DNA of 64,000 bases from the IMG/VR virus record IMGVR_UViG_2049941000_000054; one strand, written 5' to 3'. Positions 14,242 through 54,400 of this stretch are shown here, in pieces. The notes below the pieces were generated by a model. That model did not search any database. It was not told where the DNA came from and worked only from the letters and a program-made list of their open reading frames with translations. Made by a program: the position numbers and the translations under genes. Numbering within the stretch: position 1 is the stretch's first letter; every line of letters begins with the position of its first letter. This stretch comes from an uncultured virus (IMG/VR IMGVR_UViG_2049941000_000054) (lineage: Duplodnaviria > Heunggongvirae > Uroviricota > Caudoviricetes).

Positions 14242-14469
14242 ATGAAAGACGTACTCAAAATAGTAATCTTCGCCCTCGCATTGGTCGGATTCGTGACACT
14301 CGTCATACACCTCCATTGGCTCGGAGCAATCGGAGTCCTCGGTGTGGTATGGGGCGACATCAAGCCGACAAGCGAGGCGGCAGACAGGACGATTGACAGA
14401 ATACTTGCCCTGTGGGACAAGTGGAAACAGAATAGAAAAGAAGTCAAGGAGGAAAATAGCGATGAATGA
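14242..14469 (+). CDS. Small two-TM membrane protein, holin candidate
   Basis: MKDVLKIVIFALALVGFVTLVI..WLGAIGVLGVVW, charged C-terminus, upstream of endolysin. Confidence 0.5.
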   Translation: MKDVLKIVIFALALVGFVTLVIHLHWLGAIGVLGVVWGDIKPTSEAADRTIDRILALWDKWKQNRKEVKEENSDE

Positions 14470-48316: not shown

Positions 48317-48406
48317 CATTGTGTCGCAGACAATGAGTAGAAATATAACACCCAGAATGAGTAGTGCAGAGCTGCGACCTCTGTATGAAAGTTCTGGGAT
48401 TGTTTT
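48317..48406 (+). ncRNA. Kissing-loop RNA leader, copy 2
   Basis: Hairpin loop GTCGCAG complementary to second hairpin loop CTGCGAC; lies between TATCTTTG promoter (48303) and HNH ATG (48415). Confidence 0.7.
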
Positions 48407-48414
48407 TTATAGAG

Positions 48415-48941
48415 ATGGAAGAAATTTGGAAGCCGATTGAAGGGTATGAAGGGAAGTATGAGATTAGTAATCTCGGCAGAGTAAACAGCCTAAATTACCT
48501 TGGGACTGGAAAGCCAAGAATAATGAAGCCATATAAGAACATTAGCAAGCATGGGAATGTTCCTTATCTTCAAGTAGACTTGTATAAGGACGGTGTTGCG
48601 AGGTCTTTAAAAGTTCACTTTCTCGTTTGCCGGGCGTTTCATGGCTCGCGCCCTGCATCTATTAACGGCGACACTAATGTAGAGGCGATGCACTTGAACG
48701 GTAATTCTCTCGATAATCGTGCCGAAAACCTTTCTTGGGGTAGGCACAGCGATAATGTCCGCGAGAAGACTTTTGTTGAAAAACAAGCCGCAGCACAAAG
48801 ACGGAGGTGGGCTTCTGGAGAATATGAATATCAAAAGAAGGCCGTGGTTCAAATGTTGCCGAGTGGCGAGTTTGTTGCAAGGTATGCTTCTGCGTGGGAT
48901 GCTCAACGAGTTACTGGTTGTAAGATGCTCTGCGCGCCATT
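48415..48941 (+). CDS. NUMOD4-HNH-NUMOD1 homing endonuclease (3' end at gap)
   Basis: EEIWKPIEGYEGKYEISNLGRV, VHFLVCRAFHG, HLNGNSLDNRAENLSWG, VVQM..SGEFVARY.SA. Confidence 0.85.
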
Positions 48942-49016
48942 NNNNNNNNNNNNNNNNNNNNNNNNNNNNNNNNNNNNNNNNNNNNNNNNNNNNNNNNNNN
49001 NNNNNNNNNNNNNNNN

Positions 49017-50514
49017 GGAAATCCTGGAGCAAGATGCAGGCCACGCTCGCAAATGGGGTATAGAAGTCGCAGAGGTCTTTGCGAAGACGCGCAAGATGCC
49101 AGAGACACGATGTGTAACAATGATGGCGCAAACGCTTCGTCAAAGGCTGAAGAAGGTGGACTGGGCAGACTGGTTCTCTTCATTCGGGCTGATAATCTTA
49201 GACGAATGCCACAGGGCGGAATTCGACTTTGTCTTTGACAGCATCGACGACAAGGTCTTTGTTGTGGGGTTGTCTGCTTCCCCGGCGAGATATGGTCAGA
49301 TGCGCCAATTAGGGCTGGATTACGGGGCTGTTGTTATCGGTCCCCAGGTACAGGAGTTGATTGACGGCGGTTATCTCTGCCGCTGTAGGNNNNNNNNNNN
49401 NNNNNNNNNNNNNNNNNNNNNNNNNNNNNNNNNNNNNNNNNNNNNNNNNNNNNNNNNNNNNNNNNNNNNNNNNNNNNNNNNNNNNNNNNNNNNNNNNNNN
49501 NNNNNNNNNNNNNNNNNNNNNNNNNNNNNNNNNNNNNNNNNNNNNNNNNNNNNNNNNNNNNNNNNNNNNNNNNNNNNNNNNNNNNNNNNNNNNNNNNNNN
49601 NNNNNNNNNNNNNNNNNNNNNNNNNNNNNNNNNNNNNNNNNNNNNNNNNNNNNNNNNNNNNNNNNNNNNNNNNNNNNNNNNNNNNNNNNNNNNNNNNNNN
49701 NNNNNNAGAGAAGACTCTGGTATTCTGTTGTTCCTCGGAGCAGACTATCGAACTGACAAAGGCTTTCTGCGACGCCGGTATTGACGCAAGATACTGTCTG
49801 TCCGGCGATTTCGACGAAGATGAGGAGTACAGTGGCGATCGGAAAGGTGTCGTAGATGCCTTCGCGAGAGGAGATTTCCCCGTCCTCGTAAATTTCGGCT
49901 TATTTACGACGGGCATAGATATTCCGGACATCAAGGTCGTAATGCTTATGTTCTCCACGACATCGCTGGTGAAATACCTTCAGTGTCTCGGTAGAGCCTC
50001 GAGGATTGCGGACGGTAAGAATAATGAGTTCATCTGCCTCGATTTCGGGCGTAACTATGAGAGGTTGGGCAGATATGAGGATCGCCGGGAGTGGAGTGTC
50101 TGGCATAACACTTCTGCGGGTGGTGGCGTACCACCTACGAAGGAGTGCCCGCAGTGTGGGAGGCTTGTGCCAGTGTCGTGGACGGATTGTAAGTTTTGTG
50201 GATACCATTGGCCGACACAGCAGGAAACATACGTTGCGGAATTGCAGGAGGTGGTTGCCAGAGAGGATGACGAGACGATCGAGGGGTATGTCGCGAGGAA
50301 AAAACTGGAAGGGAAGAATAATAACTGGATCCTGGTTCAAGTCTGTATCAAGAATCCAGATAATCAGAAGGATGCTTTTATGCGGGCTATAGAAGTACTG
50401 AGAACAAAGCACGGGGCGAATATCAGCCCGAAATACTGGTATTTTTTTAAGAAGGAGATATTGAGCAAGGTTAAGGTTAAGAAAGAAGATAGCGATTCTG
50501 TATTATGGAAATAG
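49017..50514 (+). CDS. SF2 DEAD/DEAH-box helicase with C-terminal Zn finger (gapped)
   Basis: LIILDECH, GLSASP, TGIDIP, QCLGRASR, KECPQC...CKFCG. Confidence 0.88.
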
Positions 50515-50709
50515 GCGATAGGGTCAAAGTCGCCAGGCTTGACCAATACACACTTGATGTTATTATGGCGACTAACGCCAAGTCTCCGATAGGGATGACT
50601 GGAACTATTATAGAGAAGTATTATAATCATAATATGAGAAGGGATGAGGTGGTCGTAGAGGCGGATGGCACTTGGGATAAGTGGCTTTGGACACCNNNNN
50701 NNNNNTCAT

Positions 50710-50905
50710 ATGCGGACATTGATAGAGGCATATGGGGTTAGCAGGACTCGCGACAAAAAAAGGCGTGATTGTTAAGCAGACGACTCTCCCGTGGGTAAAC
50801 TGCATCCATACCAATGTTGGCGGAGGGTGGAAGACGATGGAGGTATTAATATTGGAGGTATATGCAGATAGGGAACTTACTCCCGCCGAGACAGATCGGA
50901 TTTAA
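50710..50905 (+). CDS. Free-standing TRD-like module 1 (start 50732, or 50710 with a slip in the A7 run)
   Basis: ...KKGVIVKQTTLPWVNCIHTNVGGGWKTMEVLILEVY... Confidence 0.55.
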
Positions 50906-51035
50906 TAATCCTCAAGAAGGTAGGATTTATTCCTTGGACGATGTGGGACCGACAATTCGGAACGATAGCAGATATTGGATATTAGAGGTATATGATGAAG
51001 ATAGCGGCGTACAACATAAAGAAACAGCGGAATGA
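50862..51035 (+). CDS. Free-standing TRD-like module 2 (57 aa)
   Basis: MQIGNLL...FNNPQEGRIYSLDDVGPTI...WILEVY; the NPQ.GRIYS...PT pattern is typical of C5-MTase variable regions. Confidence 0.7.
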   Translation: MQIGNLLPPRQIGFNNPQEGRIYSLDDVGPTIRNDSRYWILEVYDEDSGVQHKETAE

Positions 51036-51195
51036 ATACGGCCGCCAGATCCGCAAGGATTACGAGGCTCATAGGCTTCCTGGGGTTCGCCGTAAGGATA
51101 TAAAGGAACTAGTGCCGATGTTTGATGGTGTTTGTCGGACGATAACGACGATAGTCGAGGATAATTTATTGTTAGAGGTGTATGAAGGTGATTAG
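50992..51195 (+). CDS. Free-standing TRD-like module 3 (67 aa)
   Basis: RNEYGRQIRKDYE...DGVCRTITTIVEDNLLLEVY. Confidence 0.7.
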   Translation: MMKIAAYNIKKQRNEYGRQIRKDYEAHRLPGVRRKDIKELVPMFDGVCRTITTIVEDNLLLEVYEGD

Positions 51196-52382
51196 TTGTG
51201 CTCTTCGCGGTAGAGGGGGCGTGTCTGGGCGAAAGGACTCTTGGCATCTCCGGCTCGAATTAGGGGACGAGGATGTAAGCAATACGATAGACACTGTTCA
51301 AAAAGACTATTTGATAATGGAGATTATAGCGATAAAGAACCCGCTGAAAGGCAAGACGGGGTATGGCTGGCATTTTGAGCAGAATGTGTACGAAATTGAC
51401 TCGCTGGTACGGTCTTTGAAGGCTGGGGAGGGTTCAGGGAATATACCGAAAATTATTGATATGGCAAAACATTACAGAATTAGGAAGCTCACTCCGACGG
51501 AGTGCCTGCGATTGATGGGTGTGAGCGACGAAGACATCCAGAAGATGAAGGATGCAGGCATTAGTGACAGTCAGTTGTATAAGATGGCGGACAACAGCAT
51601 AGTTGTGCCCGTGCTTGAGGGCATCTTCCGCAATATGGGATTCACAGAGAAACCGCTACGCGTGTTCGAGGCGTTTGCGGGCTACGGCTCGCAGAGNNNN
51701 NNNNNNNNNNNNNNNNNNNNNNNNNNNNNNNNNNNNNNNNNNNNNNNNNNNNNCTCTTCGGAACATCGGCGTCGATCACGAGGTGGTCGGTATCAGCGAG
51801 ATCGACAAGTATGCGATTATGGGCTATAACGCCACGCACCCGGAAACGAAGAATTTCGGAGACATCAGCGAGATAGACTGGCAGGAAGTGCCGGATTTCA
51901 ACCTGTTTACCTACAGCTTCCCTTGTACGGACATCTCGAATGCGGGCGCACAGGCTGGATTTGAAGAAGGGAGCGGCACTAGGAGCAGTCTTTTGTGGGA
52001 GTGCAAGAAGGCTATCGAGGAGAAGCATCCGAAATATCTGCTGATGGAGAACGTGAAGGCAATCACGAGCAAGAAGTTCCTACCCGGTATTTTAAGATGG
52101 CAGGAGTTCCTGTCGAAGCAGGGATATGTCAACTTCATCGATGTGCTGAATGCGAAGGACTACGGGATTCCGCAGAATCGGGAGCGGTGTTTCTTGGTTT
52201 CTATCCTGGATGCTGCGTGGTATCAATTCCCCGAGCCAGTGGAACTGACGCTGAAATTGAAAGATATCCTAGAACCCACTGTCAGTGAGAAATATTATCT
52301 TGACCAAGCGAGGGTTGACAAATTTATAGCGGGACTGAGTGATGAAAAACGAGCTGCACTTGAAGAAGGTCGTACCGATTAA
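51182..52382 (+). CDS. C5-cytosine DNA methyltransferase, circularly permuted (two TRD-like modules, motifs IX-X, then I-VIII); across gap
   Basis: RKLTPTECLRLMG (IX), YKMADNSIVVPV (X), FEAFAGYG (I), SEID, GDIS, SFPC (IV), ENV (VI), YGIPQNRER (VIII). Confidence 0.9.
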
Positions 52383-52518
52383 CGCAACGCCAGACGGCTT
52401 TTGCCGGACTATAAAAGCACAGTATTACAAAAATGGATTCCGCAATTTCACATTTTTCGAAGACGGCGGTTTTGGCGCGACGGGAGTGCTTGAAATGTAT
52501 GAAGAGGACGATAAATAA
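52342..52518 (+). CDS. Free-standing TRD-like module 4 (58 aa)
   Basis: VPINATPDGFCRTIKAQYYK...FGATGVLEMY. Confidence 0.65.
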   Translation: MKNELHLKKVVPINATPDGFCRTIKAQYYKNGFRNFTFFEDGGFGATGVLEMYEEDDK

Positions 52519-52702
52519 TGAGACCCCGGTTGCGAAGATTTTTAATCTGGGTGATGGAAGGTTTGCGATGAATGCTCCGGACGGCGTTGCGTGTACACTA
52601 ACTGGTGCCCATCACTTTGCTGGAAATATAACTCATCCTCGACAGGGGTTTAGACAGATGGGAGTATTGGAGATTGAGGATACGCCGGAGGATTCCGAAT
52701 AA
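52499..52702 (+). CDS. Free-standing TRD-like module 5 (67 aa)
   Basis: AMNAPDGVACTLTG...GFRQMGVLEIE. Confidence 0.65.
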   Translation: MKRTINNETPVAKIFNLGDGRFAMNAPDGVACTLTGAHHFAGNITHPRQGFRQMGVLEIEDTPEDSE

Positions 52703-52708
52703 TTTTCT

Positions 52709-52716
52709 TATCTTTG
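52709..52716 (+). promoter_or_regulatory. Bacteroidetes -7 promoter element
   Basis: TATCTTTG before ORF 52733. Confidence 0.55.
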
Positions 52717-52947
52717 CAAAAACCGTAAAGATATGATAATTAATTTTACAGGCTCTCCTTACGACTACGCAAAGAGCCTTCCCAAAAAGGAACTGCGAGC
52801 TTTGATCCGCGAGTGTAAGAAGGCGCGAGAGCAGGATTACAACGAGTGGACTGACCGTTGTAGAGTATGCTTTGAAAGGGTCGCATCGGGGGACGACGAG
52901 CAGGCTCGTTGGTGGAGTAACCACGCAGAATTTGTAAGACCCGGCGA

Positions 52948-53349
52948 ATGATCATAGAGACCCCCGAGCCGCAGAGGAGGAGAACGCACCATTCAAACGA
53001 GGGTAGGATCCAGGCAGAGTGTTTTGCTTGGTTTTGGAATGAATTTCCCCAATACAGGAAGCTATTGTTCCACGTTCCAAATGAAAACGACAGAGCCGAC
53101 AGTAATCCCATCCAGGGTGCAATCAGAAAGAGTCTTGGGGTCGTCCCGGGTGTTTCCGACCTTATTTTGCTTGTTCCTCGCGGTTCCCACGGCGCGCTTC
53201 TTATCGAAATGAAGGACGAAAAGGGGACTCAGAAGCCTGCGCAAAAGGAATGGCAAACCATAGTGGAGGCCCAGGGATACAAGTACTGCTTGTGCCGTAG
53301 TTTGGCACAATTTAAAAATGTGATCTCTGACTATTTGAATCTCAAATAA
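52948..53349 (+). CDS. VRR-NUC domain nuclease
   Basis: E..IQ, FHVPNE, GV.PGVSDL, IEMK...G.Q...QK.W. Confidence 0.9.
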   Translation: MIIETPEPQRRRTHHSNEGRIQAECFAWFWNEFPQYRKLLFHVPNENDRADSNPIQGAIRKSLGVVPGVSDLILLVPRGSHGALLIEMKDEKGTQKPAQKEWQTIVEAQGYKYCLCRSLAQFKNVISDYLNLK

Positions 53350-53389: not shown

Positions 53390-54400
53390 ATGAGATATGT
53401 TCTTGATGAGCAAGGGCGTCGTTTCCCGAGCCTTTGGAAAGCCACGAAAGCCAATGGCGCAACATGTGGCGGAGCGTTACTAAAGAGGTTGAACAAAAAG
53501 GGTATTGTCAGGTCTGGAGGGCACACCTTCTATCTATATGAAGATGACCAGCCCATAACTCCTACGACGACAAATGTGGTCGTGCAGAAGGACCCTACCA
53601 TGGAGCGTTTGAGAAAACGTTATTCCGATTCTGAGATAGAGGCCATCGCTAGGGGAGAGGGGATCGAACGTAGGATTATCGTTTTTCCGGAAATTCGGCT
53701 TACTGGTAAGCACCATAAGTTTGTAGTGATAAGCGACACCCACGTCGGCAGCGTCTATTCCCCGTATGAGTGGCATAATGTCGTTTCTGATTATGTTAAT
53801 AATAATGGTATCGAAGCCGTCCTGCATTGCGGAGACCTTGTGGAGGGGATGAAAATCCAGAGGATAGGCACACAGATATACGAATTGTCGGATATAGGAT
53901 ACGAGGCACAGAAAGCGAGAGCTGCGGAATTGTTATCAAAATACAAAGTTCCTATATATATGATCAGCGGAAACCACGATTTTTACTATCAAGAATATGC
54001 CGGGGCTAATATAATAAAGGCGCTATCCGACAGTTTGGATAATCTGACATATATCGGGCACGATTCCGCAGATATAGATGTTGATGGTGCCACAATACGC
54101 CTTTTCCACGGAGGAGATGGCTCGAATTCCTACGCGGTTTCGTACCGGCTCCAGAAGTTATGCGAGGCGATTACTGGCGGAGAAAAACCGAATATCCTTA
54201 TTGCCGGGCACGTCCATAAGTTCTGCTATATATTCGAACGCAACATTCACGCGATCTCGGCTCCTTGTATGCAGATGCAGACCAACTTTATGAGAGGGAA
54301 GAAGTTGGCAGCGCATACGGGCTTCCTTGAATTAGAGTTCGATGTGAACGACAAGAATATCTGTAACCTCGGTGTTAAATTCTTCCCTTTTTACGCTTAG
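53390..54400 (+). CDS. Calcineurin-like metallophosphoesterase with N-terminal HTH-like domain
   Basis: SDTH, GDLVEG, GNHD, FHG, GHVH motifs. Confidence 0.85.
   Translation: MRYVLDEQGRRFPSLWKATKANGATCGGALLKRLNKKGIVRSGGHTFYLYEDDQPITPTTTNVVVQKDPTMERLRKRYSDSEIEAIARGEGIERRIIVFPEIRLTGKHHKFVVISDTHVGSVYSPYEWHNVVSDYVNNNGIEAVLHCGDLVEGMKIQRIGTQIYELSDIGYEAQKARAAELLSKYKVPIYMISGNHDFYYQEYAGANIIKALSDSLDNLTYIGHDSADIDVDGATIRLFHGGDGSNSYAVSYRLQKLCEAITGGEKPNILIAGHVHKFCYIFERNIHAISAPCMQMQTNFMRGKKLAAHTGFLELEFDVNDKNICNLGVKFFPFYA

Follow-up and report, generated by a model that had tools for sequence, protein, structure and literature searches.

A circularly permuted phage C5 cytosine methyltransferase flanked by free-standing modules that resemble target recognition domains

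The window analysed here is a stretch of 64,000 nucleotides (nt) from the uncultured Caudoviricetes virus IMGVR_UViG_2049941000_000054, and the locus under study occupies positions 50710-52702 of its plus strand, on which all features of the locus lie. As judged from the listing of open reading frames (ORFs) and three-frame translation, this locus encodes one C5 cytosine methyltransferase (C5-MTase) core together with seven modules that resemble target recognition domains (TRDs). Three modules are free-standing genes 5' of the core, the N-terminus of the core carries two more as fusions, and two are again free at its 3' side. Comparison of these sequences with their relatives suggests, with a probability that we put at roughly 0.6, that the free modules are translated on their own and serve a common scaffold as specificity subunits. 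Judging from the sequence, this layout probably shields phage DNA from many host restriction enzymes through a single enzyme.

A sequence-only reading of the window had described five small, overlapping ORFs beside a C5-MTase core and two further modules fused to that core. Both are present, as seen from the ORF listing and translation and, for module 4, also from tblastn. Free module 1 (NCIH type; 50732..50905) comprises 57 amino acids (aa) and ends in ..LILEVY followed by a 13-aa tail. Module 2 (GRIYS..GPTIRNDSRYW type; 50862..51035) is likewise 57 aa long and forms a junction-to-junction cassette of 130 nt, and module 3 (RNEYG..CRTITTIVEDN type; 50992..51195) has 67 aa. Downstream of the core, module 6 (CRTIKAQYYKNG type; 52342..52518) has 58 aa when read from its ATG, or 59 aa from an alternative GTG start at 52339, and its start overlaps the last 13 codons of the core in the +1 frame. 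Module 7 (NLGDG..ACTLTGAHHF type; 52499..52702) is the final module of the array; it measures 67 aa from the junction ATG, within a frame that is open from an ATG at 52433, and ends in ..VLEIED.. with no junction thereafter. Each free ORF overlaps its downstream neighbour. The five free modules are built to one plan of ~45-60 aa, i.e., a basic N-terminal strand (MK..P.N), a variable middle, a common C-terminal strand (..LE[VIM]Y) and a short acidic tail.

At four boundaries, the following ATG sits in the +1 frame inside the Tyr codon of the common endings ILEVY, ILEVY, LLEVY and VLEMY. The four junction strings are found where the sequence-only reading had located them, and a repeat search returned them as one family of 18-nt direct repeats (family D1). 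The first (50850..50867) reads ..LEVY with the ATG at +1; it is followed by repeats at 50980..50997, at 51170..51187, which leads into the core ORF, and at 52487..52504. All four were recovered in a census of junctions, and the last three also match the pattern TNGARRTNTATGA. This pattern occurs 4 times in the 64-kb window, compared to 0.17 expected matches, and 4 matches were reached in none of 100 shuffles; three of the matches are junctions and the fourth lies elsewhere, while junction 1 is not matched. The fourth match (14303-14315, minus strand) is situated outside the methyltransferase locus and may be due to chance. The junction between the core and module 6 carries GAT instead of TAT. 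The junction-to-junction lengths of 130 and 190 nt are both of the form 3n+1, so the loss or gain of a cassette leaves all other ORFs intact. Within 50400-53000, only short and weak inverted repeats were found, and no signals of an invertible shufflon or of a recombinase were seen.

The core (51182..52382) is a circularly permuted C5-MTase, as judged from Pfam matches to both of its halves, the order of its motifs, the orthologue P0162 and matches to PDB entries. It begins with the fused TRDs 4 (51182-51322) and 5 (51323-51460), continues with motifs IX-X (51461 to about 51640) and motifs I-VIII (about 51650-52200), and closes with a post-VIII tail that extends to 52382. The region 51182-51696 aligns to positions 234-322 of PF00145 (E 8.5e-9; motifs IX-X) and the region 51756-52382 to positions 22-211 (E 3.4e-44; motifs I-VIII). 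The C5-MTase assignment of the sequence-only reading was thereby borne out, but that reading had overlooked the circular permutation, which places motifs IX-X before motifs I-VIII. This motif order, with the N-terminus located in the variable region, is seen in the window and in six relatives. Motifs I (F.G.G), IV (PC), VI (ENV) and VIII (Q.R.R) were found in the core by pattern, and the orthologue matched M.MpeI (E 2e-37) and M.HhaI (E 1e-33) in the PDB. The conserved motifs all reside in the core chain, and the free chains of the window gave no Pfam match to PF00145 at E values of up to 1.

In the window, the two halves of the core stand in different frames and are separated by 57 N at 51697-51753. 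P0162, by contrast, is a single continuous chain of 382 aa that shares 95% and 94% identity with the two halves and has three residues at the place of the 57 N, so the N run is not true to length. Three-frame translation of the window showed 43 N runs, 20 of which are exactly 10 long; as the lengths of such runs are not faithful, reading frames across them cannot be trusted. The core is therefore best read as one ORF, and the spacing between junctions 3 and 4 agrees with the frame logic of the array only if it is one.

The TRD-like nature of the modules, proposed in the sequence-only reading, is supported by tblastn, which revealed homology to the TRDs of single-chain multispecific enzymes. 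Module 3 matched a TRD of the single-chain enzyme at viral locus L006 (E 7e-10), and the fused module 4 matched a TRD of the single-chain enzyme at locus L046 (E 8e-7). Typing of the modules by all-against-all BLAST merged types through segments holding several modules and through out-of-frame matches. A profile of module 6 compared with the PDB sequences gave only a lectin match at chance level (E 0.59).

The modules are under strong purifying selection, each in its own frame. For the eight module pairs in which the synonymous rate (dS) could be estimated, the ratio of non-synonymous to synonymous rates (omega) amounted to 0.008-0.17. The lowest value was obtained for the NCIH module 1 in the comparison of the window with locus L023, where 16.5 of 23.2 synonymous sites but only 1.5 of 84.8 non-synonymous sites had changed (omega 0.008). 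The other estimable pairs gave 0.033-0.17, including 0.038 for module 3 and 0.043 for module 7 in the comparison with locus L001. In the remaining module pairs, synonymous sites were saturated and the non-synonymous rate (dN) was 0.05-0.31.

Small proteins of this kind form hundreds of clusters in databases. A search with module 6 against 1.84 billion representative sequences returned 147 clusters, 106 of them with a length of at most 130 aa, and 105 of these 106 short homologues start with Met. A set of 14 small homologues of module 6 (48-92 aa) is named in the sources only as hypothetical. For a mini-gene that holds motifs IX-X (the IX-X mini-gene), 824 clusters of 42-135 aa were found; among the best 120 of these, 35 contain IX-X only (mostly 68 aa), 55 combine one TRD with IX-X, 14 carry a short extension and 16 were not classified by pattern. 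With a core lacking its TRDs as query, 63 of the 120 best matches were permuted cores, of which 44 carry one fused TRD (of many types), 7 several and 12 none; the latter begin directly at motif IX. Modules were found in free, paired and core-fused states. The paired state is represented by P0002, P0010, P0090 and P0015, which are natural in-frame fusions of two modules (90-126 aa), and in P0090 the acidic tail acts as a linker between the two.

To place the locus among its relatives, we compared it with 44 viral loci carrying related cores; ten split loci entered the junction census. The split layout is retained in relatives from independent assemblies with other sets of modules, as the sequence-only reading would have it. 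The five closest of the 44 loci (L001-L004 and L023; 74-85% identity) all show a permuted core with free modules, as does L045, a locus from a metagenome-assembled genome, which is binned with Bacteroidales. Three more distant loci (L005, L014 and L022) follow the canonical motif order and are cut further into three kinds of gene, i.e., a gene for motifs I-VIII, a series of six to about twelve mini-ORFs, and a gene of 77-83 aa for motifs IX-X alone. Such non-permuted arrays span 2914-4751 in L022, which has six TRDs that are all free, and 2917-5280 in L014. Of the seven boundaries in L022, only the first, from the core to a module, is -1; the other six are +1. Still more distant loci (L006, L046, L007 and others) encode ordinary single-chain enzymes, some with many TRDs. 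The census yielded 29 TATG(+1) junctions with a strand-like ending in 8 of the 10 split loci, and for 22 of these 29 no earlier ATG precedes the junction ATG in its ORF; of 34 ATGs at offset +2, none followed a strand-like ending. A blastn search against GenBank phages returned no match.

Indel errors in a continuous gene, which the sequence-only reading had named as a possible objection, are an unlikely source of this layout. A 6-kb contig from run X1, assembled independently from what is possibly the source sample, is identical to the window over 50706-51696 (991 bases, gapless), and the same +1 junctions recur in unrelated assemblies.

The junction had further been proposed to act as a site of cassette shuffling, and comparison of contigs indeed reveals it as a natural breakpoint at which cassettes are lost and replaced. 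A 39-kb contig from run X5, which belongs to another study (depth 71; about 92% identical to the window), skips 50848-50979 and thereby exactly the 130 nt between junctions 1 and 2, i.e., module 2. In contigs from run X6, 176 nt of the array are swapped for 191 other letters and 229 nt for 99, and one of these contigs departs from the window just behind junction 3 and continues into a different module. Types of module also differ in their state between loci. The NCIH type occurs as a free module in the window, L003, L004, L023 and L022 but as a fused one in L045. Of the FDDYN type, L004 has a free copy and L001, L002 and L023 have fused ones, and for the type of module 2, free in the window, core-fused copies are found in P0160, P0176 and P0196. 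As a VRR-NUC gene follows the array in the window, in L004 and in L045, the flanks remain syntenic while the array varies.

Alignment with relatives also brought to light two peculiarities of the window copy that the sequence-only reading had missed. At motif X, the window carries an Asp codon (51593..51595) and reads ADNS, where all aligned relatives have Gly at the same site, i.e., AGNS (G90) in 55 of 55 aligned permuted cores and in P0162. Judging from this alignment, the Asp may impair cofactor binding of the window copy. The second concerns module 1, whose frame is shifted by a run of seven A (A7; 50755..50761); six relatives and run X5 have one base fewer in this run. The X5 contig lacks the base at 50755, which contigs from the window's own sample (runs X1 and X3) contain just as the window does. 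In consequence of the shift, the conserved N-terminus of module 1, AYG(V/I)SRTRDKKG, is in frame in the six relatives and X5 and out of frame in the window. Three-frame translation and a DNA alignment with six relatives identify a remnant of the ancestral start of module 1 (50710..50775), which reads M..LIEAYGVSRTRDKK and is then terminated by the A7 frameshift. A change from TAC to TAT (50730-50734), present in the window alone, creates a new ATG at 50732 and restores the ORF for the rest of module 1. Together, the A7 run and the new ATG could constitute an on/off or re-start variant of this module.

On the reading that we favour, in which the modules act as subunits, the locus would specify an anti-restriction C5-MTase of the phage that is assembled from parts. 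The chain of ~382 aa would provide the entire catalytic scaffold in permuted order, from the two fused modules over motifs IX-X to motifs I-VIII, and the five surrounding mini-genes would contribute one TRD each, with the middle of each module reading the DNA. Each mini-gene would initiate at its own ATG, one base into the last Tyr codon of the preceding module, and the 3n+1 cassettes could be removed, added or exchanged at the junction with their neighbours left intact. We infer that the mini-proteins would dock singly between the post-VIII segment and motif IX, where a normal enzyme has its TRD; the gap there may be filled by two strands of the module, the basic one at its N-terminus and the C-terminal one with its acidic tail. 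The predicted outcome is a mixture of holoenzymes methylating several different sequences. The 'up to seven' methylation specificities of the sequence-only reading equal the plain number of modules, and distinct specificities, like separate translation and assembly in trans, would follow from the proposed arrangement. In our view the strongest argument for it comes from the many relatives without a TRD in any motif-bearing chain (e.g., L022 and the 12 permuted cores): we read the modules as subunits acting in trans because these TRD-less relatives, which would be inert without TRDs supplied in trans, are conserved. Moreover, natural two-chain C5-MTases and fragment complementation with a split in the variable region are known, as far as the accounts in PMC3404938 and PMC5944983 go.

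Several observations weigh against the subunit reading. The structural models added no support, since a free mini-protein modelled as a monomer reached a mean predicted local distance difference test (pLDDT) score of only 59.7, i.e., low confidence, and the fused TRD of P0159 remained below 50. We know of no experimental precedent for a 50-aa TRD being supplied to an enzyme in trans. The GGAGGT found at the junction provides no evidence of a ribosome site, as the window uses few Shine-Dalgarno motifs. The junction ATG is replaced by ACG in L023 (about 2617-2630) and L045 (about 2420-2440), and the modules behind these two junctions, otherwise intact, are either silent or translated in some other way. 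Internal frameshifts break module 1 of L002, several modules in L005 and L014 and the FDDYN module of L003; individual modules are evidently often lost or switched off. Finally, the window copy itself may be weakened, because of its motif X Asp and an A7-shifted module 1 that lacks the conserved N-terminus.

The same broken modules would fit a silent cassette library, in which only the core-fused TRDs are active and the free mini-ORFs serve as a store from which modules are brought into the fused position by recombination at the junctions or by indels in their TA-rich sequence (TATATG fused, TATG split). Identical types of module do occur both fused and free, and cassettes are lost and replaced at junctions. 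Moreover, fused joints read ..LE[VIL]Y-MAKHY in frame and split ones have the ATG at +1, so the two states differ by an indel of one or two bases. However, omega values of 0.008-0.17 for the free copies are low for DNA that is not expressed, and the ATG is retained in 29 junctions. A library would also leave L022, L014, the 12 of 63 permuted cores and the 35 of 120 mini-genes with IX-X only, none of which has a fused TRD, as dead yet conserved genes, and the inverted repeats or recombinase signals that could mobilise a reserve were not seen in 50400-53000. We therefore regard a silent library as unlikely.

The sequence-only reading had left a choice between separate subunits and modules joined by +1 frameshifting. 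The split modules under selection stand, but joining by frameshifting is unlikely, judging from the features of the junctions. If each ..LE[VI]Y junction made the ribosome shift by +1, or if TATG were decoded as a four-base codon, the array would yield one multispecific chain like those of L006 and L046. It is in keeping with such recoding that all TRD-to-TRD junctions in the census are +1, that the ATG is absent at two junctions (L023 and L045), and that the read-through joints resemble single-chain ones (..LEIY-KTLKIPQATKKGY compared to ..VAEP-KLAIRQATKKGY in L006). Yet the A-site codon is GAA, GAT or GCA, i.e., neither a stop nor an obviously slow codon, and the tRNAs for Tyr or Val are not expected to re-pair on ATG or TAT in the +1 frame. 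The core-to-module-6 junction has GAT rather than TAT, the step from the core to the first module of L022 is -1, and the zero-frame tails continue for 3-14 codons before they reach a stop. Six to twelve consecutive shifts would leave hardly any full-length product, and recoding does not need the ATG that is nevertheless conserved. A tRNA scan found no tRNA genes in the window, which thus offers no candidate for a four-base decoder. Recoding appears improbable to us on these grounds, and more so than a silent library. Least probable of all is that the small ORFs are meaningless, as products of a decaying multispecific methyltransferase gene or of the assembly. The 43 N runs of the window, the Gly-to-Asp change in motif X with the shifted module 1, and the broken modules of some relatives would agree with it; it is largely refuted by the independent assembly identical over 50706-51696, the same +1 junctions in 8 unrelated assemblies, purifying selection in every shifted frame and the complete small proteins that make up hundreds of clusters in databases.

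The locus lies between genes of other functions. Upstream, a helicase ORF (48364-50514; Helicase_C, UPF0547 zinc ribbon) carries an N-terminal domain resembling homing endonucleases (NUMOD4 and HNH_3; 48412-48939), and the helicases of L002, L003 and L023 begin without it. N runs inside this ORF may hide a gene boundary. Directly downstream of the array are genes for the VRR-NUC nuclease (52948-53349) and a calcineurin-like phosphoesterase (53390-54400). The window has a G+C content of 49%, and matching sequence occurs in bovine gut metagenomes. A rumen bacterium with no reliance on Shine-Dalgarno pairing, perhaps a member of the Bacteroidales, is the probable host. GGAGGT at the junction was considered as a Shine-Dalgarno motif and rejected, such a motif being found upstream of 6 of 32 long ORFs in the window compared to a background of 13%. 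As Shine-Dalgarno use in the window is low and L045 is binned with Bacteroidales, the string probably reflects the Leu-Glu-Val codons of the module ending rather than a ribosome site.

The locus combines features known separately from C5-MTases, i.e., multispecific tandem TRDs, circular permutation in the variable region and splitting of the chain. Among the multispecific enzymes of Bacillus phages are SPR and phi3T. These serve anti-restriction as well and carry several short tandem TRDs, each of which is thought to confer one specificity, and modules 3 and 4 of the window are homologous to TRDs of the single-chain multi-TRD enzymes of L006 and L046. Unlike SPR and phi3T, in which the TRDs are described as lying in one chain between motifs VIII and IX in canonical order, five of the seven modules in the window are separate genes and the core is permuted. 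Multispecific C5-MTases of temperate Bacillus phages are covered by Trautner et al. 1996, as cited in PMC12707154.

Natural circularly permuted C5-MTases comprise M.BssHII, M.Alw26I, M2.Eco31I, M.Esp3I, M2.BsaI and 22 more in REBASE, according to the account in PMC5944983. Like the core of the window, these enzymes (Type H) place motifs IX-X before I-VIII in one chain, with the TRD first and the permutation in the variable region. They appear there as self-contained, with no free TRD array, whereas 12 of the 63 permuted relatives reported here have no TRD in the core chain. M.AquI, as presented in PMC3404938, is likewise divided within the variable region and becomes active when its subunits assemble, and the small genes with one TRD and IX-X (55 of the best 120 clusters) resemble its small subunit. 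In contrast to the several TRD-only pieces of the window, and to relatives that would need three kinds of chain, M.AquI is depicted with two chains, motifs in both and one specificity. The same source describes a small second polypeptide for M.EcoHK31I, which is required for activity but brings motif IX rather than a TRD, again with one specificity. The HsdS subunits of Type I restriction-modification systems, in the terms of PMC12707154, similarly supply specificity from a separate, exchangeable subunit, and exchange of their modules leads to new specificities; they differ in belonging to an unrelated class (adenine N6), in having much larger TRDs and in being shuffled by inverted repeats and recombinases. 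We found no description of free-standing TRD genes in a standard cassette array in open-access papers and preprints.

In its widest form, our proposal is that the C5-MTases of gut and rumen phages evolved a Type I-like system in which a constant scaffold is served by free TRD subunits of 50-60 aa, encoded in a row of 3n+1 cassettes. The TATG junction would act as start codon and recombination joint at once, so that a lineage could add, drop, swap, fuse or switch off specificities and leave the enzyme untouched. We consider this generalisation to be evenly poised between right and wrong. If the mini-proteins do work in trans, the enzyme would be the first C5-MTase with a detachable specificity subunit, and no smaller portable module by which a methyltransferase recognises DNA would be known. 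For targeted or programmable marking with 5-methylcytosine, a fixed core with interchangeable TRDs of 50 aa would make a convenient tool, and hundreds of small hypothetical proteins from metagenomes would gain a function. For the phages of restriction-rich gut and rumen bacteria, the model would explain how they match changing host defences through cassette turnover, which is observed between near-identical strains.

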